Assembly: GCA_965369835.1 (NCBI GenBank)
Contig: CBDUSE010000001.1
Location: 4,393-68,392 of the forward strand
Source of the DNA: an uncultured bacterium
Lineage (GTDB): Bacteria > Auribacterota > JABMQX01 > JAFGEW01
Direction: 5' to 3'
DNA length: 64,000 nucleotides
Below, in pieces: positions 13,182 through 47,013 of the stretch. The notes under the pieces were generated by a model. The model was given only the letters and a program-made list of their open reading frames with translations, was not told the origin of the DNA and ran no database searches. Positions within the stretch are counted from its first letter, which is position 1. Every line of letters starts with the position of its first letter. A program made the translations under genes and the position numbers.

Positions 13182-13197
13182 TGGCAACGTCCTTGCT
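13182..13197 (+). promoter_or_regulatory. Sigma54 (-24/-12) promoter TGGCAA-N5-TTGCT
   Basis: GG and GC elements are exactly 10 nt apart, about 100 nt upstream of the PAS-HisKA gene. Confidence 0.5.
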
Positions 13198-13297
13198 GCG
13201 AGACTCGCCCGCGGGCTCTCTGCCGGGCGCACTTCTCTGCGTTCTCGACGAGGGAGCGCCTCGGAGGCCCGGAGCAGGCAACGAAGACGGTGTGGTC

Positions 13298-14573: not shown

Positions 14574-14589
14574 TGGCATGTTCTTTGCA
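14574..14589 (+). promoter_or_regulatory. Sigma54 promoter TGGCAT-N5-TTGCA (near-perfect consensus)
   Basis: GG-N10-GC spacing is exact. Located 37 nt upstream of the ATG of the PseG-like gene. Confidence 0.55.
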
Positions 14590-14625: not shown

Positions 14626-15654
14626 GTGGGGATGCAACGTTCCGTTGTGATTCGGGCAGATGGGGGTCATCAAATCGGCACCGGGCACTTCGCTAGAATG
14701 TTCCGTCTCGCCGATCGCTTCAACCAATCGGGCAGTACGGTGACGTTCGTGTCACAATCGCTCGACGGATGCGCCGGCCTGTTCGAGAGGCGCAGCCACG
14801 AACTTATCCTCCTCCCCCCCATCTCCGAAGGCTCGAGCGCGCAGGCGGCTTCTGCGGTCGGCGCGCTCGAGCCTGATCTTATTCTAAACGACGTCCGGGA
14901 CACTTCGGACGACTACATGCGCGCGCTCCGCGCCGGCGGCGCGCGAATCGTCAACTTTGACGACTGGGGCGCCGGCGCGGCGCTGGCGGACCTGCTGGTG
15001 GACGCCAACCGCCTGCCTGAGGAGACGGACGATGGAGCGAACCCCCGCGTGCTTTTCGGGCCGGACTACATCGTGCTCGACGAGGCGTTCGAGCAGGCGC
15101 ACGGCCGGCCGAAGCCCATCCGCGGGCGGGTCGAGGAGTTCCTGGTTTTCATGGGCGGCAGCGACCCGGCGGGCCTGACGCTCGAGGCGCTGCGGGCGAT
15201 CGAGCTGCTCGAACCGGAGTGGCATACGACCGTCGTGCTCGGCTACGCCTTCCAAGACCGCGCCGAGGTGGAGGCGTTAGCGGCACGCTGCCGGAACGCG
15301 GAGGTCGTCGCCGGGGCGGACGACCTAGCGCCGAGAATGCACGGGGCCGACATGGCGCTCTCATCGGGCGGGATCGCAATGTTCGAGCTCGCGTGCGTGG
15401 GCACACCCTCGATCGTCCGGTGCCAGGTGCCGCACGAGCTCGAGAATGCGCGGCTCTTTGCCGATCGGGGCATCGTCCGATGCCTTGGGCTCGGCAGCGG
15501 TCTGGGGGCCGAGGCGGTGGCGCAAGCGCTCAGCGCGCTGGCGGCCGACGCTGCGGCGCGCCGGGCGATGAGCGAGGCGGGCAAACGGACCGTTGACGGG
15601 CGCGGACTGAGCCGTGTGATGGAGGCAATCGAACAGTGCGTCCAGCAATCATGA
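14626..15654 (+). CDS. PseG-like (MurG/GT28 C-terminal fold) UDP-sugar hydrolase / glycosyltransferase
   Basis: N-terminus VVIRADGGHQIGTGHFARMFRLA matches the PseG/GT28 signature (IRADAS..IG.GH..R). 342 aa. Confidence 0.6.
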   Translation: MGMQRSVVIRADGGHQIGTGHFARMFRLADRFNQSGSTVTFVSQSLDGCAGLFERRSHELILLPPISEGSSAQAASAVGALEPDLILNDVRDTSDDYMRALRAGGARIVNFDDWGAGAALADLLVDANRLPEETDDGANPRVLFGPDYIVLDEAFEQAHGRPKPIRGRVEEFLVFMGGSDPAGLTLEALRAIELLEPEWHTTVVLGYAFQDRAEVEALAARCRNAEVVAGADDLAPRMHGADMALSSGGIAMFELACVGTPSIVRCQVPHELENARLFADRGIVRCLGLGSGLGAEAVAQALSALAADAAARRAMSEAGKRTVDGRGLSRVMEAIEQCVQQS

Positions 15655-16868
15655 TCGTTGGGGCCGGCATCCTTCAGGAGCCGGCCATTCGAATCGCGAA
15701 GTCGCTCGGCTACGTGGTGATCGCCACGGACATCGTTCCCACCGCGCCCGGCCTACGCTGGGCCGACCGTGCCGGCATGGTCAGCAAGTTCGACGTCGAG
15801 GGGCACGTGCGCTTCGCGAAGGCGTGCTGCAAGGAGTTCGACCTGCGCGGCGTGCTCACGATCGGGACCGATGCCTCGTGCGCGGTCGCGGGCGTCGCTT
15901 CGGCGCTCAACCTGCCCGGCGTGGATCCGCGCACCGCGTTTATGGCGACGCACAAGGCGGCGATGCGGCGGCGGCTCAGGCAGTGCGATGTGCCCTGCCC
16001 GGACTTCCGCGAGGTGCGCCAGCTCGGCGAGGCGCTTTCGGCCGCCAAGGCGATCGGCTACCCGCTCGTCATCAAGCCGGTGGACAATATGGGCGCACGC
16101 GGCGTGCGGCGCATTGATACGCCCGAGGAGCTGCGCGACTTTTTCCCCGTCACGATCTTCAACAGCCGGGAGGGGGGCGCCGTTGTCGAACAGTACATGG
16201 AAGGGCCCGAGGTGAGCATTGACACGATCGTCGAGAACGGCGAGGTGCACCTGCTCACGATCGCCGACCGCCACATCACGAACGCGCCGTACTTCATCGA
16301 GGTCGGCCACACGCTTCCCTCGGCGCTGTCGCAGGACGTGCTCGACGACGTGTTCGAGGTGATGCGCCTCGGCATCGAGGCGCTGGGTATCATGACCGGC
16401 GCCTCGAAGGGCGATATCAAGATCACAGCCGGGGGGGCGAAGATCGGGGAGATGACCGCCCGTATGAGCGGCGGCTTCCACTGCCAGTACACCGACCCGC
16501 TGGCGACGGGGATGAACTCGATTAAGGCGGCCATTGACCTCGCGCTCGGCCATCGGCTCGACCTCGCGGACGTCACGCCGCGCTGGCATCGCGCCGCCGC
16601 CGAGCGGGCGATCCTCGCCGGGCCGGGTGTAGTCACGGTGATCGAGGGCGTGGACGAAGCGCTGCAGATCCGGGGCGTCGAGCACGTTTTCCTCAACGTG
16701 AAGGAAGGGAGTGTCGTGGCGCCGTTGACGAGCAACATGGGCAAACCCGGTCACGTGATTACGTCGGGCGAGACGCGCGCTCAGGCGATCGCGGCGGCCA
16801 ACCGTGCGCTGGAAACCATCCGGATCATCACTGCGCCGGTTACCGAGAAGGCGGCGGCCCACTCATGA
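15636..16868 (+). CDS. ATP-grasp domain ligase (sugar or amino-acid ligase in the glycan pathway)
   Basis: A pre-ATP-grasp region is followed by an ATP-grasp core (GYPLVIKPVDNMGARGV, EQYMEGPEVSIDTIV). An alternative start at 15651 (ATGA overlap) is possible. Confidence 0.6.
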   Translation: MRPAIMIVGAGILQEPAIRIAKSLGYVVIATDIVPTAPGLRWADRAGMVSKFDVEGHVRFAKACCKEFDLRGVLTIGTDASCAVAGVASALNLPGVDPRTAFMATHKAAMRRRLRQCDVPCPDFREVRQLGEALSAAKAIGYPLVIKPVDNMGARGVRRIDTPEELRDFFPVTIFNSREGGAVVEQYMEGPEVSIDTIVENGEVHLLTIADRHITNAPYFIEVGHTLPSALSQDVLDDVFEVMRLGIEALGIMTGASKGDIKITAGGAKIGEMTARMSGGFHCQYTDPLATGMNSIKAAIDLALGHRLDLADVTPRWHRAAAERAILAGPGVVTVIEGVDEALQIRGVEHVFLNVKEGSVVAPLTSNMGKPGHVITSGETRAQAIAAANRALETIRIITAPVTEKAAAHS

Positions 16869-16874
16869 GGGCCG

Positions 16875-17885
16875 ATGCGTGAGGGCTCACGTGTGAGCTG
16901 GAAGCGAAAAAGAGTTCTGGTCACCGGCGCCGGCGGCTTCATCGGGAGCCACCTCGTCGAGGCGTTGGTGCGTCGCGGCGCGAGGGTGCGCGCGTTTGTC
17001 CATTACAACTCGCGCAACGACTGGGCGCAGCTCGAGCGTGTGCCCCGCTCCGTGCTCGGGAACATCGAGGTGGTGGCCGGCGACGTGCGCGATCCGTTCT
17101 TTGTGAGGACGGCGGTCGAAGGGTGCGAGGTCGTTTTCCACCTCGCGGCCCTCATTGCGATCCCGTACTCGTACCAGGCGCCGCAGAGCTTCGTCGAGAC
17201 GAACGTGCTCGGCACGCTCAACGTGCTCGAGGCGTGCCGGGCGGTGGGCGTGGTACGGATGGTGCACACCTCGACGAGCGAGACCTACGGCACGGCCGAG
17301 CGCGTGCCGATGGATGAGACCCACCCGTTGCACGCGCAGTCGCCGTACGCGGCGAGCAAGATCGGGGCGGACACGCTCGTCGAGAGCTATGTGCGCTCGT
17401 ACGGCGTGCCGGCGGTGACGGTGCGGCCGTTCAACACCTACGGACCGCGCCAGTCGGCGCGGGCCGTGATCCCGGCGATCGCCACGCAGACGCTCGCTCG
17501 ACGCAAGCGGATTGCACTCGGCTCGCTCACGCCGGTCCGGGACTTCAACTACGTGAGCGACACGGTGCGCGGCTTTCTCAGCGTGGCCGAGCTCGACGAC
17601 GCGTCCGGCGAGGTGTTCAACGTCGGCACGGGCAAGGGGGTGGCGATCGGCGAGGTGGGCCGCGCGATCATTGATCTGTGCGGCAACGGGGCGCGCCTCG
17701 TCCGCGACGAGCAGCGCGTGCGGCCCGATTCGAGCGAGGTAATGCACCTTGTCTGCGACAGCTCGAAGCTGCGGACGTGCACGAGCTGGCAGCCACAGGT
17801 CTCGTTGCACGAGGGGCTCGAGCGCACGGTCGAGTTTGTGGCCCGACACCTCGGCGCATACAAGGCGGACCTCTACAATGTGTAG
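16875..17885 (+). CDS. NAD-dependent NDP-sugar epimerase/4,6-dehydratase (extended SDR family)
   Basis: VLVTGAGGFIGSHLVEAL Rossmann motif and a catalytic YAASK (YxxxK). An alternative GTG start near 16896 is possible. Confidence 0.8.
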   Translation: MREGSRVSWKRKRVLVTGAGGFIGSHLVEALVRRGARVRAFVHYNSRNDWAQLERVPRSVLGNIEVVAGDVRDPFFVRTAVEGCEVVFHLAALIAIPYSYQAPQSFVETNVLGTLNVLEACRAVGVVRMVHTSTSETYGTAERVPMDETHPLHAQSPYAASKIGADTLVESYVRSYGVPAVTVRPFNTYGPRQSARAVIPAIATQTLARRKRIALGSLTPVRDFNYVSDTVRGFLSVAELDDASGEVFNVGTGKGVAIGEVGRAIIDLCGNGARLVRDEQRVRPDSSEVMHLVCDSSKLRTCTSWQPQVSLHEGLERTVEFVARHLGAYKADLYNV

Positions 17886-17894
17886 GCAACGCGT

Positions 17895-18608
17895 ATGAAA
17901 GCGGTTGTGCTCGCCGGTGGCAAGGGAACGCGGCTCCGGCCCTACACGGCCGTGCTGCCGAAGCCGCTTGTGCCTGTTGGCGACACACCGATCCTCGAGA
18001 TCATCCTCTCGCAGCTCAGCCGTGCCGGTATGACCGACGTGACGATCACCGTCGGCCATCTCGCCTCGCTGATCGAGACCTTTTTCGGCGACGGCAGCCG
18101 GTTCGGTCTCCGCATCGAGTACTTCCGCGAAGAGACCCCGTTGAACACCGTCGGCTCCCTGCCGCTTATTGACGAGCTGACCGAGCCGTTCCTCGTCATG
18201 AACGGCGACGTACTGACCGATATTAATCTCGACAAGCTCGTCGCGTTTCACCGCGAGAAGCGGTGCATTGCGACGATCGCCACGGCGCCGCGCGAGCAAA
18301 AGGCGGACTTCGGCGTCGTGCGGTGGGACGGCGACACGCGGATCGTCGAGTTCCTCGAAAAACCGATGTCGCGCTATCACGTGAGCATGGGCGTGTACGT
18401 CTTCTCGCACGCCGTGCTCGAATATATTCCCTCGGGCAAGCCCTTCGGCTTTGACGAGCTGATGCGGGTGATGCTCGAGGCCGGCGAGCGGGTCTTTTCC
18501 TACCCGCACGACGGCTACTGGCTCGACTTGGGCCGGCCCGATGACTACGAACGCGCCATCGAGGATTTCGCTCGGATGCGGGAGCATTTCGTGGGAGCGC
18601 AACCATGA
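17895..18608 (+). CDS. Sugar-1-phosphate nucleotidyltransferase (RfbA/RfbF-like)
   Basis: MKAVVLAGGKGTRLRPYT...LPKPLVPV is the NTP_transferase signature. Confidence 0.8.
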   Translation: MKAVVLAGGKGTRLRPYTAVLPKPLVPVGDTPILEIILSQLSRAGMTDVTITVGHLASLIETFFGDGSRFGLRIEYFREETPLNTVGSLPLIDELTEPFLVMNGDVLTDINLDKLVAFHREKRCIATIATAPREQKADFGVVRWDGDTRIVEFLEKPMSRYHVSMGVYVFSHAVLEYIPSGKPFGFDELMRVMLEAGERVFSYPHDGYWLDLGRPDDYERAIEDFARMREHFVGAQP

Positions 18609-19786
18609 CGTGGGCGGTGCCATTGGCGGGCCTCGACTTCGATGAGGCGGAAGCGCGCGCGGTCCTCGACGTGCTCGAGAGCAAGTGGCTCACGATGGGT
18701 CCGGTGACCGAGCGCTTCGAACACGCGTTCGCCTCGGCCGTTGGCGTGCGCCACGCGGTGGCGGTCTCGAACGGCACGGCCGCCCTGCACCTCGCCTGCC
18801 GCGCGCTGGGAATTGGTCCCGGTGACGAGGTGATTGTGCCGTCGTTGACCTTCGTGGCGACGGCGAACGCGGTGGTCTACTGCGGGGCGACGCCGGTCTT
18901 TGCCGATATCACATCCGAGGACGATTGGACCGTTTCGCCAGACGATATCGAACGGCGCATTACCGATCGGACAGTGGCGATCATCGTGATGCACTACGGT
19001 GGTTACCCGTGCGATATGGCCGCGATCCTCGACGTGGCGCGCCGCCACGGCGTGCCGGTGATCGAGGACTGCGCCCACGCCCCGCTGGCGCGTCTCGATG
19101 GGCGCGTGGCCGGCACGTTCGGCGCGATCGGCTGTTTCAGCTTCTACACGAACAAAAACCTTGCGGTGGGCGAGGGCGGCATGCTGGTGACCGACGCCGC
19201 TGCGCTCGCTTCTCAAGCGCGCCTTATGCGGTGCCACGGCCTGTCGAGCGTGTGCGCCGATCGGCACCGTGGCGCCGGGCCGCTCTACGACGTGACCGAG
19301 CTTGGGTACAACTACCGGCTCGATGAGATGCGCGCGGCGATCGGGCTGGTGCAGCTCGACAAACTCGCCCGGAATAACCGGCGCCGTGGCACGCTCATGG
19401 CGCGATACCGCGAATTGATCTCGGGCATCGAGGGGGTGCGGCTCCCGTTCGCCACGCCGCGAGGCGAGCCGGCGCACCACATCTGTCCTGCGCTGCTCGA
19501 TGAGGATGTGGATCGGCAACGGTGCATCGAGGGGCTGCACGAACGCGGCATCCAGACGAGCGTGCACTACACGCCGGTTCACTTGTTCCGCTACTACCGC
19601 GAGCGGTTCGGCAGCGGCGCGGGCGAGTTGCCGCTGACCGAGGGGGTCGCGGCACGTGAGATTACGTTGCCATTACATCCGCTCCTGACCGAGCAGGAGG
19701 TGAGCGAGGTTGTCCGAGCGCTCGGGGAAGCGCTCGACGCGCGGCGGCACGCGCCGCCGCCACAGGGAGCGGTTGTTGTTGCTTGA
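18605..19786 (+). CDS. DegT/DnrJ/EryC1/StrS-family PLP-dependent sugar aminotransferase
   Basis: Matches the DegT family throughout (AVSNGTAALHLA, FSFYTNKNLAVGEGG with the PLP lysine, GYNYRLDEMRAA). ATGA overlap with the upstream gene. Confidence 0.85.
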   Translation: MTWAVPLAGLDFDEAEARAVLDVLESKWLTMGPVTERFEHAFASAVGVRHAVAVSNGTAALHLACRALGIGPGDEVIVPSLTFVATANAVVYCGATPVFADITSEDDWTVSPDDIERRITDRTVAIIVMHYGGYPCDMAAILDVARRHGVPVIEDCAHAPLARLDGRVAGTFGAIGCFSFYTNKNLAVGEGGMLVTDAAALASQARLMRCHGLSSVCADRHRGAGPLYDVTELGYNYRLDEMRAAIGLVQLDKLARNNRRRGTLMARYRELISGIEGVRLPFATPRGEPAHHICPALLDEDVDRQRCIEGLHERGIQTSVHYTPVHLFRYYRERFGSGAGELPLTEGVAAREITLPLHPLLTEQEVSEVVRALGEALDARRHAPPPQGAVVVA

Positions 19787-19955
19787 GGCCCGAGGGTCGA
19801 GTTGCGCGTGATGCGCCCAGCTTGGCCAGGGGGATTCGATTCCCGAGGGTCGGTCGGAGCAGTTCGGAGGTCAGTTGCGCAGCAGGCATGGGGGGATGCC
19901 GTGTTGATTCTCCGTGCTGGTCTCAGGGTTATTCGTGAAAGAAAAGGGGAACCTG

Positions 19956-20690
19956 ATGACCACGAAGCAGGAGCGTCTCATCGTTCTTGGACGTCTCTCT
20001 TCCGTGCTCGCCCACGAGATCCGAAATCCGCTGGCCGGCATTAGTGCGGCAATACAGGTGCTCGGCGGAAAGATTGCGGAAGCGGATCCGCGGAGGAAGT
20101 ACGTCGGCATGATCCTCAAGGAGGTCGAGCGCGTCAACGACATCGTGAAGAACCTGCTCGACTTCTCGCGCGAGGGCCGGGCGTACATGATGCCGGCGCG
20201 TGTCCGCACGCTCGTCGAGCATGCGCTCGAGCAGTTCGCCCGGCAGTGCGAGCACGCCGGCATCCATGTCGAGACCGATCACGACGACGACCTGCCCGTT
20301 GTCGTGTGCGACGTGGAGCAGATGGGGCGGGTCTTTCGCAATCTCATCGCGAACGCCGTTGACGCGATGCCCCGAGGCGGCACGCTGACGGTGCGGACCG
20401 CGCATAACGCGGCGACGGGGCAGGTCGCCGTCAGCTTCGAGGACACGGGCATCGGCACCGACGTAGCGGATCTGGGCGAGCTCTTCTCACCGTTCTACAC
20501 GACCAAGACGAAGGGGAACGGGCTTGGTCTGCCCGTGGCGCTCAAGTGCATCGAGGAACATGGGGGAACGATCACCGCGCAGCGCGGGGAGCCGTGCGGA
20601 TTGACGATGGTTGTCCAGTGGCCCGTCAAGCCACTCAACGAGGCGGGCACCCCGAACAATGCAGCACAGACGACGCACCTTATCGGCTAG
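19956..20690 (+). CDS. Cytoplasmic sensor histidine kinase core (HisKA + HATPase), FlgS-like
   Basis: H-box LAHEIRNPLAGI lies about 15 aa from the N-terminus. N, G1 and G2 boxes are present (NLIANAVDAM, DTGIG, GNGLGL). No TM or sensor domain. Confidence 0.8.
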   Translation: MTTKQERLIVLGRLSSVLAHEIRNPLAGISAAIQVLGGKIAEADPRRKYVGMILKEVERVNDIVKNLLDFSREGRAYMMPARVRTLVEHALEQFARQCEHAGIHVETDHDDDLPVVVCDVEQMGRVFRNLIANAVDAMPRGGTLTVRTAHNAATGQVAVSFEDTGIGTDVADLGELFSPFYTTKTKGNGLGLPVALKCIEEHGGTITAQRGEPCGLTMVVQWPVKPLNEAGTPNNAAQTTHLIG

Positions 20691-20702
20691 ACAGGGGAGA
20701 GT

Positions 20703-22067
20703 ATGGACACGTCTATTCTTATCGTTGATGATGAAGAGGCGATTCGCCTCTCGCTGACCGAGGCGCTCAGCGACGAGGGATATACGGTCATCGCGGCCGC
20801 CTCAGGCGAGGAGGCGATCGCCCTTGTGCGCCGTAGACGCCCGGACCTTATGTTGCTTGACATGAAGCTGCCGAAAGCGAGCGGCATGGAGGTGCTCAAG
20901 CAGGCGAAGAAGATCCAGAACGACATCGTGGTGATTATCATGACCGCGTTCGCCGACGTCGCCAGCGCGGTCAAGTGCATGAAGCGCGGCGCCTACGACT
21001 ACCTGAACAAGCCGTTCAGTCTCGACGCGCTCAAGCTCGTGGTCCGCAAGGCGCTCGAGACGCTCTCGCTCAAGAAGGAGCTCTCGATCGTGCGCGAGCG
21101 CGCGCAGCGCGATTTTGAGGCCGATTTTATCATCGGTGAGAGCTCGAAGATGCGTAAGGTCTACGAATACGTCAAGCGCGTGGCCCGCAGCAACTCCTCG
21201 ACGGTGCTCGTTCAGGGCGAGAGCGGCACGGGCAAGGAGCTCATCGCGCGGGCGATCCACTACTTGAGCTTTCGGCACGACAAGATGTTCGTTGACTTCA
21301 ACTGCACGGCCGTTCCGGAGGCGCTTGTGGAGAGCGAGCTCTTCGGGTTCGAGAAGGGCGCCTTCACGGATGCGAAGCACCAGAAGACGGGCTTGTTCGA
21401 ACTGGCGGACAAGGGCACGCTGTTCCTCGACGAGATTGGCGACATGAGCTATCACCTCCAGGCGAAGCTCTTGCGGGCGCTGCAGGAGCGTTCGTTCACC
21501 CGCGTCGGTGGCATCTCCAAGATCCACGTGGACATCCGCATCATCGCCTCGACGCACCGCGACCTGAAGGCCGCGATGGCCGCTGCGAAGTTCCGCGAGG
21601 ACCTCTACTACCGACTCAACGTGGTACCGATCTCGCTGCCGCCGCTTCGCGATCGCGGCCCGGACATCCTGCTACTGGCGAAGCACTTCATTGACCGCTT
21701 CAATCGCGAGTTCAAGAAGAACGTCTACAAGATGGCGCCCGAGACAGAGCAGCTCATGCTCGGGTACCATTGGCCGGGCAATGTGCGCGAGCTGCAGAAC
21801 ACCATCGAACGGGCCATCCTGCTCGAGTGTGACGACGTGCTCTTGCCTGAGCACCTGCTGTTCGCCGAAGCTGAGACCACGCCGGCACCGGAGAGCTCGC
21901 CCGTACCAAGGGCCACCGACATGACCCTCGACGATGTTGAGAAGGAGTACATCCTCCGTGTGATCGAGGCGGTCGGCTGGAACAAGAACCGCGCGGCGAA
22001 GAAGCTCGGCATTGATCGCACCACCCTCTATACTAAGATCAAGAAGTACAGTCTCGCGCGCACGTGA
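20703..22067 (+). CDS. Sigma54-dependent response regulator (NtrC family; REC + AAA+ sigma54-activator + Fis-type HTH), FlgR/FleR-like
   Basis: Receiver domain, GESGTGKE Walker A, the GAFTGA-type loop (EKGAFTDA), ESELFGFEKGAFT, and a C-terminal HTH (NKNRAAKKLGIDRTTLYTKI). Confidence 0.9.
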   Translation: MDTSILIVDDEEAIRLSLTEALSDEGYTVIAAASGEEAIALVRRRRPDLMLLDMKLPKASGMEVLKQAKKIQNDIVVIIMTAFADVASAVKCMKRGAYDYLNKPFSLDALKLVVRKALETLSLKKELSIVRERAQRDFEADFIIGESSKMRKVYEYVKRVARSNSSTVLVQGESGTGKELIARAIHYLSFRHDKMFVDFNCTAVPEALVESELFGFEKGAFTDAKHQKTGLFELADKGTLFLDEIGDMSYHLQAKLLRALQERSFTRVGGISKIHVDIRIIASTHRDLKAAMAAAKFREDLYYRLNVVPISLPPLRDRGPDILLLAKHFIDRFNREFKKNVYKMAPETEQLMLGYHWPGNVRELQNTIERAILLECDDVLLPEHLLFAEAETTPAPESSPVPRATDMTLDDVEKEYILRVIEAVGWNKNRAAKKLGIDRTTLYTKIKKYSLART

Positions 22068-22266: not shown

Positions 22267-22282
22267 TGGTACAGAAGTTGCT
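22267..22282 (+). promoter_or_regulatory. Sigma54 promoter TGGTAC-N5-TTGCT
   Basis: GG-N10-GC spacing is exact. The -12 element lies 38 nt upstream of the lipoprotein ATG at 22320. An adjacent 6-bp-stem palindrome GTTGCTCAAAGCAAC overlaps it. Confidence 0.5.
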
Positions 22283-22319
22283 CAAAGCAACCTGCGTAGG
22301 TTCATGTATCAAGGAAAAG

Positions 22320-22760
22320 ATGATGCGAGCTGCCTGGATCGTCGTAGGGATGCTGATCGCCGCAATGCTGGTTGCAATGATGGGGTGCCGGTTCGGCACT
22401 CGCACGCCGACGCGCGAGCAGACTCGCCCGTACGATCTCGTGCCGCAGTCGGGCTATCTTGCCGACGGACCGACGGTGAGTCCGGACTACGCGGCGCCGC
22501 CCGCGTCCGAGGATGACGACAGCGGCACCAACGAAGCGGCGTATCGGGCGGCGATTCAGAAGGACCTCGTGCGCATCAATGTGCTGCTCACGGAGAACGA
22601 ACGGCTGCGTCAGGAGCTTGCGGCCACGAAGCTGATGCTCGACGAGGCCCGAGACGAGATCGAGAAGCTTCGAAAGGCGATCACCACGCTCGAGGCGAAG
22701 CTCGAGCGCGTGAAGGCACGAGCTAAACGCCGCGGGGGAAACGTCCCGGGCGAGGAGTAG
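22320..22760 (+). CDS. Lipoprotein with a coiled-coil C-terminal domain
   Basis: Signal peptide with lipobox (LVAMMGC), then an Ala/Pro-rich linker and a heptad-like ERLRQELAATKLMLDEARDEIEKLRKAITTLEAKLERVKARAKR. Confidence 0.5.
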   Translation: MMRAAWIVVGMLIAAMLVAMMGCRFGTRTPTREQTRPYDLVPQSGYLADGPTVSPDYAAPPASEDDDSGTNEAAYRAAIQKDLVRINVLLTENERLRQELAATKLMLDEARDEIEKLRKAITTLEAKLERVKARAKRRGGNVPGEE

Positions 22761-22850
22761 CAACCTCCGGGAGCCCGAGCGGTTTTGCGCAGCAACGAAG
22801 CCTCCTCCCAGCGAAGCGTCTGTGAACCTGGGCGACGAATCGAGCGGGCA

Positions 22851-24359
22851 ATGAAGGGATCAATCCTGATCGTTGATGACGAGGCCACTCTGGCCGAGAC
22901 GATCCGTGACTATTTCGTCGCGGATGGCCTCGACGCTGCGTGCGTACAGTCGGCCGAAGAGGCCCTGGAGTTCGCTCGTGCGCGGCAGTTCCATGTGGTC
23001 GTCACCGACATGAAGATGCCCGGGATGAGCGGCATTGATTTGCTGCGCGCGCTCGGGGAAGCGCCGGACCCGCCGTCGGTCATCCTAATGACCGCCTACG
23101 GGACAATGGAATCCACTGTTGAAGCATTCCGGCTCGGGCTGTTCGATTTTCTGCAGAAACCGGTCTCACTCGACGAGCTGAGCAAGAGCGTCGAGCGCGC
23201 ACTCAACGCGCGCGCCTCGCGGGTCAACGACACCCCGCTGCCGGTGCCTCTACACGTGTTGCGCGAGCGCTCGCGCCGTGTCGGTGCCGTGCGGGCCGAG
23301 GTGGCGGGCGACTCCTCGGCCGCCCAGGCGACGGCGGTCTGGCGGCTGCGCGCGCTTGATCGGCAGCGGGCGGGCTTTGTGTGGGCACACGTGGCACCAG
23401 GCAGTCGGTTCGCGGTCGCCGCTCGCTTGGTCATCAGGACGCTGGCGGACGCGCTTGACCTCGGTGCGCCCCGCGAAGCGCTCGAGACGATTATGCGTCA
23501 TTTGACGGACCTCGACTGTGGCTCCACGTTGCGCGCGCTTGCTGTCGGCGTGGTTGAGTCGGAACCGAGCCGTCGCCTCTATGGCGCCGCGCTTGGCCAT
23601 GCCGGGCTCTTCCGCCTCGACGCGAGCGGTTCGGCTCCCGAGTCCCTCGCGGGCGGGCCGCGGGACGCCACGCGCACGTGGGAGGCGAGCCTGGCGCCGG
23701 AAGATGTATTGCTGCTCGCCGACCCGCGCTTGGTGTCGGCGGCGGCGGAGCGCTGGTCCGACGTGCTCGCGGCGACCAGGAAGCTGATTGCGGAGGGCGA
23801 GCCGAACCCGGCGCGGCGGGCGCTCGCGATGGTGCCCGAAGTCGCCGGCGAAGCGCCGGTCGTGATCGCGCTTCGCCTCGGCAAAGCGATCCGGCCCGAC
23901 GGGCTGACGCATGTGCGCGTCTCATCGAACCGGGCAAGTCTCGGTCACGTGCGCGACGTGGCGGAGCGGTTCGCGCTTGGCGTGCCGCTCAGTGGGCAGG
24001 CGGCTCACGAGGTGGTGACCGCAGTTCAGGAAGCGGTGCTTAACTGCATGCGCTGGGCCTACGCGGGCGGGGAGGGCCCCGTTTGCCTAACGCTCTCGTG
24101 CGAGGGCGGGCGCATGCGGGCGAGCGTGCGCGACCGCGGTCTCGGCTTCGATGTGGGCGAGACCTTCCGCCGCACGAGCGATCCGTCACAGGACCCGCTG
24201 CGGCGCTCGGGCCGTGGCCTGATGCTGATGCACCGGCTCGCGGACCGGTTCGAACTGACTTCAAGACCGGGCCGCGGCACGAACGTCGTGTTGGAAAAGG
24301 ACTTCGACGCGCCGTTCACCGACGGCGCCGACGAGCGAGAGGCCGAGCAGGTGCGATGA
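22851..24359 (+). CDS. Fusion protein: REC receiver, then a PP2C/SpoIIE-like (apparently degenerate) phosphatase domain, then an RsbW/SpoIIAB-like anti-sigma serine kinase (HATPase_c_2)
   Basis: N-terminal ILIVDDE...VVVTDMKMPGMSG...LQKP is the receiver. The middle region has an RsbU-like layout (LYGAALGHAGLFRL, DVLLLADPRL) but lacks the canonical GD.SGHG metal site. The C-terminus (VTAVQEAVLNCMRWAY...GRGLMLMHRLADRFEL) is RsbW-like. Confidence 0.55.
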   Translation: MKGSILIVDDEATLAETIRDYFVADGLDAACVQSAEEALEFARARQFHVVVTDMKMPGMSGIDLLRALGEAPDPPSVILMTAYGTMESTVEAFRLGLFDFLQKPVSLDELSKSVERALNARASRVNDTPLPVPLHVLRERSRRVGAVRAEVAGDSSAAQATAVWRLRALDRQRAGFVWAHVAPGSRFAVAARLVIRTLADALDLGAPREALETIMRHLTDLDCGSTLRALAVGVVESEPSRRLYGAALGHAGLFRLDASGSAPESLAGGPRDATRTWEASLAPEDVLLLADPRLVSAAAERWSDVLAATRKLIAEGEPNPARRALAMVPEVAGEAPVVIALRLGKAIRPDGLTHVRVSSNRASLGHVRDVAERFALGVPLSGQAAHEVVTAVQEAVLNCMRWAYAGGEGPVCLTLSCEGGRMRASVRDRGLGFDVGETFRRTSDPSQDPLRRSGRGLMLMHRLADRFELTSRPGRGTNVVLEKDFDAPFTDGADEREAEQVR

Positions 24360-24745
24360 ATCGAAGCGCGTTAGGGCACGACGATAAGCCGGTGGTGGTA
24401 GCAGTCATAGACGAGCTGGTGTTCGAGTCGGCCGAGCCGGCGGAGCAACTGCACGAGCTGCTCCGGGCGGGCACGTGCCGCATCGTGCTCGACTTGCGGC
24501 AGGCGACGTATGTCTCGGGCGTTGGTCTTGGCCTTGTGGCGGACGTGGCGAAGCAGGCGCGGCGAGGCGGCGGCGACGTGAAGCTCGTCGTGCACGGCTC
24601 CGAGGTGCGCCGCGTGTTCGAGCTCGGCGAGCTCGATTCGCTACTCGAGTTCTACGATGACATCGAGAGCGCGTGCAACGCCTTCACCGACTCCGTCGGC
24701 GAGGTGGAGCGCACGCTCTTGTGGCGGCAGTTTGACGATGAGTGA
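24356..24745 (+). CDS. STAS-domain anti-sigma-factor antagonist (SpoIIAA/RsbV-like)
   Basis: 129 aa with STAS pattern (VVVAVIDELVFESA...RIVLDLRQATYVSGVGLGLVADVAKQARRGGGDVKLV). The ATGA start overlaps the kinase stop. Confidence 0.7.
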   Translation: MNRSALGHDDKPVVVAVIDELVFESAEPAEQLHELLRAGTCRIVLDLRQATYVSGVGLGLVADVAKQARRGGGDVKLVVHGSEVRRVFELGELDSLLEFYDDIESACNAFTDSVGEVERTLLWRQFDDE

Positions 24746-25520
24746 GACACAAGCAGACAACACCGACGCGCCGGCACAAGTCACTCAGGCGCCCGCGCAA
24801 GTTGGCGGTGGCACACCGGTCGAGGTGATGCCGCTGGAGGCGGCTGAACTGGCCGCCGGCGCGCGGCAGCGTCGTCGCAGGCTTGTGCTGTATTTCGCCG
24901 CGCCCGCGATCGTGATCGGTCTCGTAATCACCGCGACGCAGGTGAAGCTGGGCGGGCGCTCGGGGGCGAGGTCGCCGGTTGTGCGCGACTGGGAATCGGG
25001 CATGGCACTGATCGAAACAGGGCGAATATCGAAGGGGCTCGAAACGCTCGAGAACGTGGTGACGCAGCTTCCGAAAGGGCCGGAACGCATCCGGGCGTAC
25101 GTGCGCCTCGCTGAGGTCTACTGCATGCTCGGTGAGAACGAGCCGCACTACCTGAACTCAGCTATCCGCCACTATGCGACCGTGCTTGATTCGGCCGGCG
25201 ATGCCGCGTCGCTCGATGGCGCTGTGACGGTTGACGAGTTGCTCTACGAGACCGGCCGCTGCTTTGTCGCCCTCGGCTCGTACGAAACGGCGCTCGAGTT
25301 TTTCGAGCAGATTGACGTCGAGTTCCCTGCGAGCCTCTTCAGGCCGCAGGCGCGACTTGAGATCGGTGAGAGCTACCTGGCGATCGGCCAGTACCAGCGG
25401 GCGCGCCGGGTGCTTGCCGAGGTGGCCGAGACGTACCGGGGCGATCCACTTGGCGAGAAGGCCTTCTTCCGTTTCGCCGATTCCTTCGACGAGCAGGCCG
25501 GATTATTGAGGGGAGAGTGA
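24738..25520 (+). CDS. Membrane-anchored TPR-repeat protein
   Basis: One TM helix (LVLYFAAPAIVIGLVITAT) followed by TPR-like repeats. Confidence 0.5.
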   Translation: MSETQADNTDAPAQVTQAPAQVGGGTPVEVMPLEAAELAAGARQRRRRLVLYFAAPAIVIGLVITATQVKLGGRSGARSPVVRDWESGMALIETGRISKGLETLENVVTQLPKGPERIRAYVRLAEVYCMLGENEPHYLNSAIRHYATVLDSAGDAASLDGAVTVDELLYETGRCFVALGSYETALEFFEQIDVEFPASLFRPQARLEIGESYLAIGQYQRARRVLAEVAETYRGDPLGEKAFFRFADSFDEQAGLLRGE

Positions 25521-27385
25521 TGGTGCCGCCGCGCGCGCGTAGCAGGGATCGAACGCGGGTCACCGCGATGCTGATCGCGGCGGCGTTTCTGTGCGCACTT
25601 GCACCACCGGCTCAAGCCGGGCCGTTGCAGTTGGGCGGCGAAGGGCCGCTGCTGCCGCGTTCAAGCGGGCCACGCAGTTCGCGCACCCTGGTGCCGACCG
25701 CCGAGGAGACCGCCGTACCGGCTGAGCGTTCCGAGGTGCTGAAGGCAGCGGGCACCGAGGACGAGCGCGAGGGAGCGGCGCCCGAGGAAGCCACGAGCAC
25801 GCTGCGCGCGTTCCTCAACGAGATGCTCGAGCAGGGTGCCCTGTGGAAGGTGCTCCCGATCCACATGGGCGTCGCGGCGCGCCGCACCTATCTCGAGGAC
25901 CGCAGCATCCGCAGCTATCGTGAAGGCATTTTCCGGTTTCCGGACTCACCGTTCGTGCCGGCGGCGCACTTGAGGATCGCCTCGATCTACGCGCGGCGCG
26001 GCGACCGCCGGGCGGCGCTCCGCGAGTACGCGACGCTGCTCGAGCGTTTCCCGGACCACGACAGCGCCGACGACGCGCGCTTGGCAAGGGCCCAGATGAT
26101 GTTTGCGGCAGGCGACTACGCCGGCGCCAGGGACGAAGGCTACCTGTTGATGGATAGGTACACCGAGAGCGTGCTCGTGGCGGACGCGTACCTGCTTGTG
26201 GCCCACGCGCACGAGCTGCTGGGCGAATTCGAGGAGGGCCAACTGGCCTACATGCACGTGCTGGAGCGAACGGCGGCCGGCGACGAGCGGTCCGTTCGGG
26301 CGTGCGAGGGCCTCGCCTCGCTCGAGCTGGCCGCAGGCAACGCCGAGAGGGGGATCAAGATCTACAAGCAGTTGCTGGAGGAAGCACCGACCCAGGCCGC
26401 GCGGGACGCCCGCGAGTTCAAGCTCGCGAGCGTTTACCTCGACGTGGGCGAGACGGTGCGTGCGCGCACGCTGTTCCGGCGAATTCTCCGCGGCTACGAG
26501 CTCAACGCCTACCGCGCCGCCGCCGCTTTTCTACTCGCGGACTCCTACTACGCCGACGGGGAAATGCCCCAGGCGGCGCAATACTACACGGGCGCCTTGC
26601 TCGACTTTCCGACCTTCGAGGAGCGCATTCCGGCGCTGTTCCGCGCGGCGGACGCCTACAAGGGGCTCGTGCTCTACGAGGAGGCGCTTGCGATGGTGTG
26701 CCAGGTTGCGAAGGCGCGCGATCCGGCGCCGACGCCGCACCAGCGCGCCCGGGCCAAGCTCATCGCGGGGGAGATCCTATTCTTCAACGAGCAGTATGGC
26801 GCGGCACTCGAGGAACTGTACGGGGCGCTCGTCGGGGAGCTGACGACGTCCGAGCGAGAACGGGCGGCCTACCGCATCGGGCAATGCTACTACCGCAGCG
26901 GGTACTACAACGAGGCGCTCGAGGCCTTTGACGCCGCGCTCGGGCAAGCGCCACAGCACGAGCTCGCTTTCGAGGCGTTGCAGGCGGTGGCGGACTGCTA
27001 CGAGAAGAAGGGATGGCTCGACGACGCGCGGCAGCGCTACAAGGCGATCCTCGATGCGGCAAGCGAGGACGACTCGCCCGAGCAGCTCGCCGCGCGATCG
27101 AGCGTCGTCTTCAGGCTGCTCAATACCTATGACGACCGCGGCCTGTACCAGGAGGAGCTCAACGCCGCGAGGGAGCTCCTCGAGCGCAAGTACGCCTTTC
27201 TCGACGAGACGCGGCTGCTCTACCGGATGGCGCGTGCCTACGAGCGTTTGAATAACCCGGTCGAGGCCGAGACGCTCTACGCGCAGGTGCGCTCGCGATT
27301 TCCCGGCAGCACGTGGGCGCAGCAGGCCGATGTCAAGATACGGCATATGCGGATGCTCAAGCAGATCAAGGCGTTATCGAACTAG
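25520..27385 (+). CDS. Secreted multi-TPR repeat protein
   Basis: Signal peptide MLIAAAFLCALAPPAQAG, then more than 12 TPR-like units (AEAYLLVAHAHELLGEFEEGQLAY and similar). The start overlaps the upstream stop. Confidence 0.6.
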   Translation: MVPPRARSRDRTRVTAMLIAAAFLCALAPPAQAGPLQLGGEGPLLPRSSGPRSSRTLVPTAEETAVPAERSEVLKAAGTEDEREGAAPEEATSTLRAFLNEMLEQGALWKVLPIHMGVAARRTYLEDRSIRSYREGIFRFPDSPFVPAAHLRIASIYARRGDRRAALREYATLLERFPDHDSADDARLARAQMMFAAGDYAGARDEGYLLMDRYTESVLVADAYLLVAHAHELLGEFEEGQLAYMHVLERTAAGDERSVRACEGLASLELAAGNAERGIKIYKQLLEEAPTQAARDAREFKLASVYLDVGETVRARTLFRRILRGYELNAYRAAAAFLLADSYYADGEMPQAAQYYTGALLDFPTFEERIPALFRAADAYKGLVLYEEALAMVCQVAKARDPAPTPHQRARAKLIAGEILFFNEQYGAALEELYGALVGELTTSERERAAYRIGQCYYRSGYYNEALEAFDAALGQAPQHELAFEALQAVADCYEKKGWLDDARQRYKAILDAASEDDSPEQLAARSSVVFRLLNTYDDRGLYQEELNAARELLERKYAFLDETRLLYRMARAYERLNNPVEAETLYAQVRSRFPGSTWAQQADVKIRHMRMLKQIKALSN

Positions 27386-27410: not shown

Positions 27411-27845
27411 ATGGAGAACACGCTGCTCAAAACCCTGCACGACGGGATCCGAGAGGAGATTGCGCACTATGAGCAGCTCCTCGATCTCACGACGCGGGAG
27501 CACGAGATCCTCGCCGAGGAGAGCTACAACACAGAGCTAGCGACGCTGGCGGCCAAGAAGCTCAGGATCATGCGCGAGATCAACGACCTGACCATGCGCA
27601 TCGGCCCGCTCAAGGTGCGCTGGAAGCTCGAGGAGCCGCGCGACGAGGCGAACGAGGATGCCGGGGAGATTTCGCCGCTGCTCGAGGAGCTCGGTGCGCT
27701 GCTCGAGAAGATCCTCGACGTAGACGAGGGGAACCAGCGGATCCTTTCGCGCCTCATCGGGGCCACGGACACCACCGAGGCGAGCAAGAGCCTCAACACG
27801 GCCTCCGCCGCGCGCGCCTATGACCGGACGACGCCAAAGGCATAG
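27411..27845 (+). CDS. FlgN-like putative flagellar export chaperone
   Basis: 144 aa helical protein with FlgN-like heptad pattern (HYEQLLDLTTREHEILAE...LAAKKLRIMREINDL). Confidence 0.35.
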   Translation: MENTLLKTLHDGIREEIAHYEQLLDLTTREHEILAEESYNTELATLAAKKLRIMREINDLTMRIGPLKVRWKLEEPRDEANEDAGEISPLLEELGALLEKILDVDEGNQRILSRLIGATDTTEASKSLNTASAARAYDRTTPKA

Positions 27846-27881: not shown

Positions 27882-29180
27882 ATGATGGAGAGCACCGTTG
27901 CGTCCGAACAGGCCACGGGTGAGGGCATGTTCGCTGACGCGCTCACGGAACATGGCGTAGGTGGGGCCGGTGATATCGAGCGCCTGGCCGAGGCGTTCGA
28001 GCGCTTCACGAGGAAAGCCGCGAAGCTCCGGGGCGCCTATAACAAGCTCAAGCGACACGTGGGAGCGGTCAACCGCGAGCTCGAGGAAAAGAACGTCGAG
28101 CTACGGCACAAGATCGAGGAGCTCGACTCGACCCGCACGTACCTGAATAACGTGCTCGAGAGCATGGGAAGCGGCGTGATCGCCGTTGATGCGCTCGGAC
28201 GGATCACCACATTCAACGCGGCGGCCGAGCAGATGACCGGCTACAGGCGCAACGAGGTGCTCGGGCGCCCCTACGGCGAGGTCTTCCCCGAGCGGGACGA
28301 CGGCCCGCCGGCGATCCTTCTGTCACTCGAGACGCACAGGCCCCACATCGTCAAGGAGCGCGCCCTGCACCGCCACGACGGTCGGGCCGTACCAGTCGGC
28401 GTGAGCAGCTCGCCGTTTCGCGACTCGAACGGCGCTCTCTCCGGCGCGCTCGAGATCTTCCACGATCTTACTGAGGTGAAGTTGCTCGAAGAGCGCGTGC
28501 GTTGCGCCGATCGGCTCGCTGCGCTCGGTCAGATGGCAGCGACGGTGGCGCACGAGATCCGCAACCCGCTCGGCGGCATCGAGGGGTTCGCGGCGCTGCT
28601 CGAGCGCGATCTGGCGGACCGGCCCGACAAGCGCGAGATGGCGAGCCAGATCGTCCAGGGCGCCCGGGCGCTCAACCGCATCGTTGCCTGCCTGCTTGAT
28701 TTCACGCGCCCGGTCGCGCTCAAGCTGCGCTGGGTGAGTCTGGGCGAGATTGCCGACGCGGCGCTCGCGGTCGTCGAGCAGGAGATGGGCGCGCAGGGCC
28801 CGCGGGTCACCATCGTTCGGGACTACGCCGAGGAGGACATGGCGATCGTTGACCCGGAACAGATGTACGGGGTGGTGCTCAACCTTGCGCGCAACGCGTG
28901 GCAAGCGATGCACGAGGACGGCGAGATCATCGTGAAAATCGGGAGCGACGAGAACACCGTGACGCTCAGCGTGCGCGACACCGGATGCGGCATGACCGAG
29001 GAGGTCCGTGCAAAGCTCTTCTCACCGTTCTTCACGACGAAAGAGACCGGCACGGGCCTGGGACTGAGCATCGTGCGCAAGATTGTGCTCGCGCACGGCG
29101 GCACCATCGAGGTAGAGAGCGCGCCGGGTGCGGGCACCACGTTCACCGTCAAGATCCTTCGGCGCCTGCGAGCGGCCTGA
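27882..29180 (+). CDS. PAS-domain sensor histidine kinase (FlgS/NtrB-like)
   Basis: PAS segment (GSGVIAVDALGRITTFNAAAEQMTGY), H-box VAHEIRNPLGGI, and an HATPase region (RNAWQAM, DTGCGM, GTGLGL). Confidence 0.85.
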   Translation: MMESTVASEQATGEGMFADALTEHGVGGAGDIERLAEAFERFTRKAAKLRGAYNKLKRHVGAVNRELEEKNVELRHKIEELDSTRTYLNNVLESMGSGVIAVDALGRITTFNAAAEQMTGYRRNEVLGRPYGEVFPERDDGPPAILLSLETHRPHIVKERALHRHDGRAVPVGVSSSPFRDSNGALSGALEIFHDLTEVKLLEERVRCADRLAALGQMAATVAHEIRNPLGGIEGFAALLERDLADRPDKREMASQIVQGARALNRIVACLLDFTRPVALKLRWVSLGEIADAALAVVEQEMGAQGPRVTIVRDYAEEDMAIVDPEQMYGVVLNLARNAWQAMHEDGEIIVKIGSDENTVTLSVRDTGCGMTEEVRAKLFSPFFTTKETGTGLGLSIVRKIVLAHGGTIEVESAPGAGTTFTVKILRRLRAA

Positions 29181-29237
29181 GCACGAGACAGCAGGGACAA
29201 CACCAGAGACCACTGGAACACAGAGAGAGGCAAGAGG

Positions 29238-30629
29238 ATGGCCATCCAACACGTCCTCGTCGTTGATGACGAGCCGCTGATCCGCAAGTTCCTCGTCGAG
29301 ACGCTGAAGCGAATGGGCTTTGCCGTCCAGGATGCGTCGGACGGCGCGCAGGCGCTGCGAAAGATCAAGTCCGAAACGTTCGACCTGATCTTTACCGATA
29401 TCAAGATGCCGAGCCTGAGCGGCATGGAGCTGCTGCGCAAGGTGCGCGAGGTGTCGCCCGAGTCGGTCATCGTGATGATGACCGCTTACGCGACCGTCGA
29501 AAGCGCGGTCGAGGCGATGAAGATGGGCGCCTTCGACTACATCATCAAGCCGTTCTCGCCCGACCAGATTGAGATGGTCACCCGTCGGGCGACCGAGCGG
29601 CAGAGCCTCATCGAGGAGAACCAGTACCTGCGCAGCGAGATCCTCAAGGAGTACGGGTTCGGCGAGATCATCGGCAACGCTCCGGTGATGCACAGCATCT
29701 TTGAGGTGATCAAGAAGGTGGCCAACAGCCGGGCCACCATGCTTGTGCAGGGCGAGAGCGGCACCGGCAAGGAGCTGGCCGCGCGAGCGATCCATTTCAG
29801 CAGCGTACGCTCGAACGCACCGTTCATCAAGGTCAATTGCGCCGCTCTGCCGGAGAACCTGCTCGAGAGCGAGCTGTTCGGCCACGAGAAGGGTGCGTTC
29901 ACGGGCGCTGTGACGCGCCGCTTGGGCCGCTTCGAGCTCGCGCACCGCGGGACCCTGTTGCTCGACGAGGTGAGCGAGATCCCGCTCGGGCTCCAGGCGA
30001 AGCTGCTCCGGGTGCTCCAGGAGCGCGAGTTCGAGCGCGTCGGTGGCACCCGGCCGGTCAAGGTTGACGTGCGCATCGTGGCGACGACGAACCGGAACCT
30101 CGATGAGGAGATCGAGGCGAAGCGGTTTCGCGAGGACCTGTTCTTCCGGCTCAACGTCATCCCGATCACGCTGCCGCCACTGCGTGAGCGAGACGGCGAC
30201 GTGCCGTTGCTCGCGCAGCATTTCGTTGATCGCTACTGCCGCGAGAACAACCGGTCGCATAAGCAGATCGTGCCCGAAGCGCTCGAGATGATGTGCCACT
30301 ACGCATGGCCGGGCAACGTGCGCGAGCTGCAGAACGTGATCGAGCGCGCGGTGGTGCTCGATGCCGACGAGGTGATCCGGCCCGAGCACCTCGCGCTTCG
30401 CCCGTCCAGTTCGAGCGAAAGCGACAGCGACGAGATCGTTGATGCGGTCGGCAGGACGGTAGCGGAGATGGAGCGCCGGCTGATTCTCAAGACACTCCAG
30501 GCGCTCGAAGGGAACCGCGGCAGGACGGCCGAGATGCTCCAGATCAGCGTGCGCACGTTGCGCAACAAGCTTAACCAATACCGGGTGCAGGGACAGTTCG
30601 CTGACTCGAAGCCGGCCTGTGCGTCATGA
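29238..30629 (+). CDS. Sigma54-dependent response regulator (NtrC family), second FlgR/FleR-like paralog
   Basis: REC domain, GESGTGKE, ESELFGHEKGAFTGA, and a C-terminal HTH (NRGRTAEMLQISVRTLRNKL). Confidence 0.9.
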   Translation: MAIQHVLVVDDEPLIRKFLVETLKRMGFAVQDASDGAQALRKIKSETFDLIFTDIKMPSLSGMELLRKVREVSPESVIVMMTAYATVESAVEAMKMGAFDYIIKPFSPDQIEMVTRRATERQSLIEENQYLRSEILKEYGFGEIIGNAPVMHSIFEVIKKVANSRATMLVQGESGTGKELAARAIHFSSVRSNAPFIKVNCAALPENLLESELFGHEKGAFTGAVTRRLGRFELAHRGTLLLDEVSEIPLGLQAKLLRVLQEREFERVGGTRPVKVDVRIVATTNRNLDEEIEAKRFREDLFFRLNVIPITLPPLRERDGDVPLLAQHFVDRYCRENNRSHKQIVPEALEMMCHYAWPGNVRELQNVIERAVVLDADEVIRPEHLALRPSSSSESDSDEIVDAVGRTVAEMERRLILKTLQALEGNRGRTAEMLQISVRTLRNKLNQYRVQGQFADSKPACAS

Positions 30630-30672: not shown

Positions 30673-30688
30673 TGGCATAGATATTGCT
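30673..30688 (+). promoter_or_regulatory. Sigma54 promoter TGGCAT-N5-TTGCT upstream of flgB
   Basis: Exact GG-N10-GC spacing, about 60 nt upstream of the flgB start. Confidence 0.55.
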
Positions 30689-46824: not shown

Positions 46825-47013
46825 GGCCGGCCCCGCTTCGTCGCGAAACTCGACAAGCGTTCTCGTCGTATCGCATTTCTCGACGGCAAAATCTTCCCGC
46901 CCCCCTCTTCCTCTCCTTTCCCTGGGCCTCTCCTTCGTTGGTATAGGACTTGCTCAATCGTGCCGGTGAGGGGGCAAAAAGGTCCGGGTCGTTTCGAAAG
47001 GAAGGAGAACACG

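Follow-up and report, generated by a model that had tools for sequence, protein, structure and literature searches.

A putative HsbR/CrsR-type fused partner-switching regulator with a degenerate PP2C domain, and its STAS partner, in a flagellar operon of uncultured Verrucomicrobiota

Here, we describe a partner-switching module, consisting of a fused regulator and the STAS protein encoded directly after it, that lies within the flagellar gene cluster of a 64-kb stretch of DNA from an uncultured bacterium (the whole stretch is hereafter called the window). The regulator carries a receiver (REC) with an intact acceptor site, a predicted PP2C fold and an RsbW/SpoIIAB-type ATP-binding domain in a single protein; the STAS gene is translationally coupled to it, and both the gene arrangement and the upstream promoter are conserved. 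We propose, with moderate confidence, that the pair represents an HsbR/CrsR-type fused partner-switching regulator and its cognate STAS protein. The operon that expresses them, found in a clade of uncultured Verrucomicrobiota, would belong to the middle class of flagellar operons and be driven by sigma-54. The architecture itself is known, and what appears to be new, judging from alignments of the family, is the family-wide loss of metal-binding aspartates from the PP2C domain together with a noncanonical acceptor site in the STAS partner. A previous sequence-only reading of the window had described a promoter, a lipoprotein gene, the fused open reading frame (ORF) and a STAS gene, all of which are present, though the regulator is 502 aa long rather than 503 (Table 1).

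The two terminal domains of the regulator were recognizable from sequence. The active-site residues of the receiver (D9, D10, D53, T81, and K103) are conserved, and its closest relatives are receivers of NtrC-type regulators with up to 50% identity; a comparison of its specificity residues with those of both neighboring NtrC-type regulators pointed in neither direction. The C-terminal kinase domain aligns with residues 25-137 of SpoIIAB, and its best NCBIfam match outside receiver models was the anti-sigma F factor (E 3e-15). It retains the N-box Glu/Asn (QEAVLN), the DxGxG motif (VRDRGLGF), the lid motif RSGxG (RRSGRGL) and a GT, with most of these positions invariant or nearly so across the family. 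Used alone as a homology query, the kinase domain retrieved four fragments of its own family and no relatives with an intact PP2C domain, and a tblastn search against plasmids returned six weak matches, one of them a canonical protein with SpoIIE and HATPase_c_2 domains from a Streptomyces plasmid. An AlphaFold2 (AF2) model of the full-length regulator reached a predicted local distance difference test score (pLDDT) of 77.8, and its top matches in Foldseek were Pseudomonas aeruginosa RssB (REC and PP2C) and Rv1364c (RsbU and RsbW), over roughly 380-395 aligned columns.

The region between these domains (residues ~125-358) gave no match to any Pfam model, including SpoIIE (PF07228), even at E<=10, and none to NCBIfam models. 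A profile of 12 middle-domain sequences yielded a single chance match (E 1.1) among PDB sequences, and against 1.84 billion representative proteins it found only its own family and two fragments. Because a sequence-level match was lacking, the earlier description of this region as PP2C-like could not be verified by sequence; the part of that claim that stood is the fold. The isolated middle domain was modeled with a mean pLDDT of 85.8 and a predicted template modeling (pTM) score of 0.85, and Foldseek assigned it to the PP2C fold with TM scores of 0.57-0.66. The model indicates that the domain adopts a PP2C fold, recognizable by its predicted structure alone and not by sequence, and disposes of the alternative that it is a GAF domain or an unrelated linker.

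To locate the metal site, we combined the register of hhalign with predicted strands and helices over 12 family sequences. The SpoIIE-type domains used as references (from the Streptomyces plasmid protein, Rv1364c, and P. aeruginosa RssB) show the metal-binding motifs GGDWYD, GDxVGxG, YTDG, and DDV, and aligned to the family profile with hhalign probabilities of 0.2-3.9%, a rough guide to the register. In the resulting map, GDxVGxG corresponds to WAHVAPGS, in which the bridging Asp has become His180 (invariant, 12/12), and YTDG corresponds to ADP, AEP, or VDA, in which the Asp has become Pro/Ala292 and an acidic residue stands one position before (D/E291). The DD before the last strand maps to non-acidic residues in A/S-P-V (AP/SP/AA-V). 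The GGD before strand 2 maps to an invariant ATAVW, with Thr161 in place of the Asp in the hhalign register, and an invariant G153-D154 lies seven residues upstream of Thr161 as a possible alternative equivalent of this first motif. Given His180, Pro/Ala292, and the non-acidic DD positions, no more than one of the four aspartates that bind metal in PP2C seems to remain in any of the 12 aligned sequences, in agreement with the earlier suggestion that the metal-binding signature is lost. The middle domain is under purifying selection and is not decaying: the ratio of nonsynonymous to synonymous substitution rates (dN/dS, Nei-Gojobori) in the unsaturated pair L004/L005 was 0.18, compared to 0.13 for the receiver and 0.27 for the kinase domain, and ranged from 0.26 to 0.36 for the middle domain in more distant pairs, values comparable with those of the other two domains. 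Its invariant positions cluster around the former active site, in the N-terminal sheet. We infer that the domain has lost the binuclear metal site and is a pseudophosphatase, presumably kept as an allosteric relay or docking module that connects receiver and kinase.

The STAS partner is likewise unusual, in its acceptor site. Its STAS domain is supported by a Pfam score of 49 bits (cut-off 22.6), with a further match to TIGR00377 at 50.1 bits, slightly under the cut-off of 53.45; its start overlaps the end of the regulator gene in an ATGA, the translational coupling that the sequence-only reading had noted, and the adjacency of the two genes is conserved in all loci. In ungapped, high-posterior HMMER alignments to TM1442 and to SpoIIAA from two species, the phosphorylated Ser faces Gly55 of YVSGVGLG: the canonical acceptors, S59 of TM1442 and S58 of SpoIIAA (MDSSGLG), correspond to Gly55, and the preceding Asp corresponds to Ser54. 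Across 30 STAS orthologues, the site reads Y[VIL]S[GAC]xGLG, with Gly, Ala, or Cys at position 55, Ser or Thr there in 0/30, and Ser54 invariant. The protein thus appears to have no Ser or Thr at the canonical acceptor position, a point absent from the earlier reading, and the alignments allow two possibilities: the acceptor may have shifted by one residue, or the protein may not be phosphorylated. Beyond the Pfam domain, the STAS protein ends in a conserved tail of 15 residues, VGEVERTLLWRQF (24695-24745, residues 114-129), with the motif VGEVERTLLW, of which E118, R119, L121, L122, and W123 are invariant in the 30 orthologues; this tail may be a family-specific interaction motif.

Upstream of the first gene, the sequence TGGTACAGAAGTTGCT at 22267-22282 is the sole exact match to TGGYAC-N5-TTGCW within the window, bearing out the near-consensus sigma-54 promoter reported earlier. 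The surrounding 21-mer CTTGGTACAGAAGTTGCTCAA is identical at 21/21 positions in the five orthologous loci L001-L005, in each case 5' of the orthologous lipoprotein gene and amid flanks that have diverged, a strong sequence footprint for a functional sigma-54 promoter. Scans for terminators and sigma-70 promoters around the operon found nothing beyond chance level. The lipoprotein that opens the operon has orthologues at the same position with 55-64% identity, and the signal peptide, the lipobox Cys and the motifs RPYDLVPQSGYL and AAYRAAIQKDLVRIN are conserved in five orthologues; in Pfam it gave weak coiled-coil matches alone. G+C content at third codon positions (GC3) is 0.78-0.81 in the lipoprotein, regulator, and STAS genes, which together with their conserved orthologues indicates that all three are real genes. 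The stretch described earlier ended with the STAS gene, but the unit most likely continues past 24745: the genes 3' of the STAS gene are tightly packed or overlapping, making probable a transcription unit of six genes (lipoprotein, regulator, STAS, TPR, TPR, and flgN) that reaches 27845. An orthologue of the first TPR protein occupies the equivalent position in L001-L004, and the position of the second is likewise conserved across loci.

Table 1. Features of the partner-switching operon and its flagellar surroundings, in window coordinates
Feature	Position	Strand	Basis or location
Sigma-54 (-24/-12) promoter, 21-mer CTTGGTACAGAAGTTGCTCAA	22265..22285	+	Motif match and conservation
Lipoprotein, 145 aa, C-terminal coiled coil, operon gene 1	22323..22760	+	Signal peptide, lipobox Cys
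Fused regulator, REC, degenerate PP2C fold, RsbW/SpoIIAB-type domain, 502 aa	22851..24359	+	Pfam and AF2 model
REC domain, residues 1-120	22851..23210	+	Pfam Response_reg, residues 6-115, E 4e-26
PP2C-fold domain, degenerate metal site (probable pseudophosphatase), residues ~140-345	23268..23885	+	Predicted fold
RsbW/SpoIIAB-type Ser kinase/anti-sigma domain (HATPase_c_2), residues ~355-485	23913..24305	+	Pfam HATPase_c_2, residues 360-483, E 2e-21
STAS anti-sigma-factor antagonist, 129 aa	24356..24745	+	Pfam STAS E 6e-13; ATGA overlap with regulator
TPR protein 1, N-terminal membrane anchor	24738..25520	+	Pfam TPR; overlaps STAS stop by 8 nt
TPR protein 2, signal peptide, YbgF/CpoB-like TPRs	25517..27385	+	Pfam and NCBIfam TPR; overlaps TPR protein 1 by 4 nt
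FlgN-family flagellar export chaperone, probable last operon gene	27411..27845	+	Pfam FlgN E 1.6e-8, above curated cut-off; position conserved
Histidine kinase and NtrC-type activator	19914-22067		5' of operon
PAS histidine kinase and second NtrC-type activator	27882-30629		3' of operon
fliA	55271-56080		TIGR02479, 258 bits

A flagellar cluster takes up most of the window. As the sequence-only reading had it, the operon lies between two pairs of histidine kinase and NtrC-type regulator, 5' of a series of flagellar genes that ends in fliA; the downstream order is flgBC, fliEFGHIJ, fliK, flgDE, flbD, motAB, fliL (two copies), fliMNOPQR, flhBAFG, and fliA. The sequence of histidine kinase, NtrC, lipoprotein, regulator, STAS, TPR, TPR, FlgN, PAS histidine kinase, NtrC, and flgB is identical in every locus with enough flanking DNA. 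FliA also matches the SigB/F/G model TIGR02980 (E 2e-33), and the SigB/SigF group of sigma factors are the usual clients of RsbW/SpoIIAB-type proteins. The family is small: among 5.8 billion clustered proteins we found 13 full-length homologues of the fused regulator, all from metagenomes or metagenome-assembled genomes, other matches being to the receiver domain alone, and the three species-level genomes that carry its gene are all labeled uncultured Verrucomicrobiota. An exact-sequence look-up of the regulator protein in the window returned no record.

The fusion had been thought uncommon. However, the layout of REC, PP2C, and kinase domains with an adjacent STAS gene is that of HsbR/HsbA (PA3346/PA3347) from P. 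aeruginosa and CrsR/CrsA from Shewanella oneidensis, and is reportedly widespread among Proteobacteria (PMC6482189). We liken the regulator to these by architecture, in the same domain order, and not by sequence orthology. Unphosphorylated HsbA binds the anti-sigma-28 factor FlgM, and the kinase domains of HsbR and CrsR bind RpoS, a group-2/3 sigma factor (PMC6482189; PMC8256260); HsbR/HsbA acts on FlgM/FliA as well as on RpoS, and CrsR binds RpoS directly (PMC6482189). Like the regulator described here, HsbR/HsbA is encoded in a flagellar cluster, which in Pseudomonas putida takes the form of the operon hsbAR-hptB-fliKLMNOPQR-flhB (bioRxiv 10.1101/2021.08.29.457346). HsbR/HsbA, with its place in the flagellar cluster and its action on FlgM/FliA, displaces Bordetella BtrU/BtrW/BtrV, the analogue named previously and the more distant one in architecture, as the closest known system (bioRxiv 10.1101/2021.08.29.457346). 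The differences are nevertheless considerable. What sets the module apart from HsbR and CrsR is that no similarity to SpoIIE/PP2C can be detected in the sequence of the PP2C domain, that its metal-binding aspartates appear to be missing, and that neither Ser nor Thr seems to occupy the canonical acceptor position of the STAS protein; the lineage is Verrucomicrobiota rather than Proteobacteria. With respect to HsbR, the window has no Hpt gene that we could see and the neighbors are classical histidine kinases, the regulator gene precedes the STAS gene whereas the order in hsbAR is the reverse, and the promoter is of the sigma-54 type whereas a sigma-70-like motif was reported 5' of P. putida hsbA (bioRxiv 10.1101/2021.08.29.457346).

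Other systems share parts of the design. Rv1364c of Mycobacterium tuberculosis (PAS-RsbU-RsbW-STAS, PDB 3ke6) has a canonical, active PP2C domain (GGDWFD, GDVVGHG, YTDG, and DD); its sensor is PAS and not REC, and the STAS domain is part of the same polypeptide. The RssB proteins of Escherichia coli and P. aeruginosa consist of a receiver followed by a PP2C fold, as here, but a kinase/anti-sigma domain is absent from both. The PP2C fold of E. coli RssB is catalytically degenerate and has been co-opted for binding proteins; this RssB is a ClpXP adaptor without a STAS partner. Receiver control over an RsbW-type domain, as proposed here, is found in SypE/SypA of Vibrio fischeri, TciR of Vogesella, and LvrC of Leptospira (PMC12826045; PDB 9qih). 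SypE resembles the regulator further in possessing a PP2C domain and in having a STAS protein as its target, but differs in its order (kinase, REC, and PP2C) and in having both activities (PMC12826045), whereas TciR and LvrC lack a PP2C fold and TciR lacks a STAS partner. Bordetella BtrU/BtrW/BtrV is a set of PP2C, kinase, and STAS proteins linked to type III secretion (PMC8256260); in that set the three functions reside on individual proteins, the phosphatase is active, a receiver is absent, and the system served is an injectisome and not a flagellum.

Under the HsbR/CrsR-type reading, a neighboring flagellar histidine kinase would phosphorylate Asp53 of the receiver, and the dead PP2C domain would relay the resulting conformational change by way of its former 'switch' helices. 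The outcome would determine which partner is bound by the kinase/anti-sigma domain, the STAS protein or another. By gene context and precedent, the likeliest candidates for that other partner are sigma-28 (FliA) itself or, via the freed STAS protein, a FlgM-like factor, and late flagellar gene expression would thereby be coupled to the sigma-54 stage. With the dead PP2C domain serving as relay or docking surface, the classical phosphatase step would be missing in cis, and two-component phosphotransfer would stand in for the phosphatase arm of the classical cycle of Ser phosphorylation. As for the kinase, it may still phosphorylate the shifted Ser54 one-way, or may bind ATP for partner recognition only.

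Several points weigh against this proposal. With only 12-13 sequences, the alignments behind the structure models are shallow, and the map of catalytic residues combines an hhalign probability below 4% with predicted secondary structure; the acidic D/E291 adjoins the lost third Asp, and D154 and H180 are both invariant, so that D154, H180, and D/E291 could form an unusual functional metal site. Ser54 may be the acceptor in a slightly shifted loop, making the kinase side of the STAS cycle conventional. The link to FliA, FlgM, or export comes from gene context and precedent only, and a separate PP2C phosphatase or an flgM gene could lie elsewhere in the genome, outside the visible 64 kb. No FlgM match was found with Pfam among the window ORFs scanned, and phmmer with approximate enterobacterial FlgM queries against the six-frame translation gave a best E of 2.8, an insensitive search confined to these 64 kb.

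An unlikely alternative is a fully functional orthologue of HsbR, in which a divergent but active PP2C with ligands D154, H180, and D/E291 dephosphorylates a STAS protein phosphorylated at Ser54, and the receiver toggles kinase and phosphatase as in Pseudomonas. The architecture and adjacent STAS gene match HsbR/CrsR, D154 and H180 are invariant and position 291 is always acidic, Ser54 is invariant in 30/30 STAS orthologues, and the surroundings of the former active site are the most conserved part of the middle domain. Yet the SpoIIE/PP2C Pfam model finds no match at E<=10, and in all 12 sequences the bridging Asp is His, the TDG Asp is Pro or Ala, and the DD is absent; no characterized PPM phosphatase is known to be active without these residues. 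In addition, five independent HMMER alignments put Ser54 one residue off the acceptor position. A more radical possibility, to which we give some, though minor, credence, is a partner switch without any Ser phosphorylation cycle, in which the dead PP2C domain is a relay, the STAS protein is not phosphorylated at the canonical site, phosphorylation of the receiver Asp alone sets the partner, and the RsbW-type domain is an anti-sigma-28 factor that replaces or supplements secreted FlgM. If true, the checkpoint from sigma-54 to sigma-28 would be read via two-component signaling and not via anti-sigma export.

The gene neighborhood lends itself to a different target. Probable co-transcription with flgN and a position upstream of the fliH/I/J and flhA/B export genes would suit a BtrU/W/V-like control of flagellar type III export, one of the options raised in the earlier reading, in which the STAS or kinase domain contacts the export gate or a chaperone such as FlgN, and partner-switch control of type III secretion is documented (PMC8256260). 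We regard this as distinctly improbable: the Bordetella functions are split over BtrU, BtrW, and BtrV, the phosphatase among them being active, interaction with export components is a proposal only, and the closer architectural relatives HsbR and CrsR act on sigma or anti-sigma factors. Less probable still is an RssB-like adaptor, which would deliver a sigma factor bound by the anti-sigma domain to a protease such as ClpXP, with the STAS protein as anti-adaptor. Receiver plus pseudo-PP2C is the exact layout of RssB, and RssB proteins, including E. coli RssB with its degenerate C-terminal PP2C domain, were the best full-model Foldseek matches, but RssB lacks an RsbW-type kinase domain, whose ATP-binding motifs are conserved in the family described here, and no protease gene lies within the operon. 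An ordinary hybrid histidine kinase with an unrecognized HisKA, envisaged in the earlier reading as a way it might fail, is rejected as barely conceivable. It could point to a weak secondary match to Pfam HATPase_c (E 7e-8), but the match to HATPase_c_2 is much stronger (E 2e-21), the ATPase domain is of the SpoIIAB type and aligns with SpoIIAB over its full length, no HisKA was found, the preceding 220 residues fold as an alpha/beta PP2C sandwich rather than the helical hairpin of a dimerization and histidine phosphotransfer (DHp) domain, and the adjoining gene encodes a STAS protein.

In textbook partner switching, kinase and phosphatase oppose each other on a STAS protein. The family described here keeps the three-domain scaffold of HsbR/CrsR, with the phosphatase apparently inactivated and the acceptor Ser moved or removed, and as such provides a test case both for roles of the PP2C fold beyond catalysis (allosteric relay and docking) in such fusions and for whether receiver phosphorylation alone can drive the choice of partner. 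An answer to the latter would be relevant to the route by which E. coli RssB and similar REC-PP2C proteins turned into pseudo-enzymes. The proposed HsbR/CrsR-type function would also extend the link between partner switching and flagellar sigma-28, so far from Pseudomonas, to a sigma-54-driven hierarchy in uncultured Verrucomicrobiota. Because these organisms are uncultured and their family is small, the practical consequences are limited.

The wider cluster holds further features of regulatory interest. When one mismatch was allowed, we found 10 sigma-54 sites in the window against 1.8 expected, a number that no shuffle reached, and sigma-54-type -24/-12 sites lie directly 5' of a pseG-like gene (14574-14589), flgB (30673-30688), and fliO (46939-46954). 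This excess, together with the two pairs of histidine kinase and NtrC-type regulator, points to a flagellar hierarchy with two sigma-54 tiers, after which FliA would act. The histidine kinase at 19914-20690 (258 aa) consists of HisKA and HATPase_c without a sensor or membrane segment, features also lacking in reported cytoplasmic FlgS-type kinases, and it is a candidate phosphodonor for the receiver of the fused regulator. At 13034-14385, a protein with PAS and HisKA but no HATPase_c overlaps the next gene, a single-domain receiver; the pair is kept in L001 (622-1625) and might be an input to the flagellar regulators, acting in phosphotransfer or as a phosphatase. Directly 3' of fliA (56093-57196) lie a very acidic, probably disordered ORF of 118 aa and a 236-aa lipoprotein with the lipobox LACLQAGC; both are without family matches, and neither is FlgM-like by the tests run.

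Additional genes relate to the flagellar structure itself. The genes for both TPR proteins probably share a transcript with the switch genes and flgN, and together with the lipoprotein these proteins could be periplasmic components of a motor scaffold, like PflA, PflB, and FlgP of Campylobacterota. The block at 14626-19786 encodes a PseG-like hydrolase (E 2e-42, slightly below cut-off) and a DegT-type aminotransferase, and the syntenic genes of L001 also include ATP-grasp, epimerase/dehydratase, and nucleotidyltransferase domains; it looks like a pathway for a pseudaminic-acid-type sugar, probably serving flagellin glycosylation. A 211-aa ORF without a family match is situated between fliJ and fliK (37116-37751), and the two fliL paralogues, of 175 and 179 aa, stand in tandem at 44177-45240.

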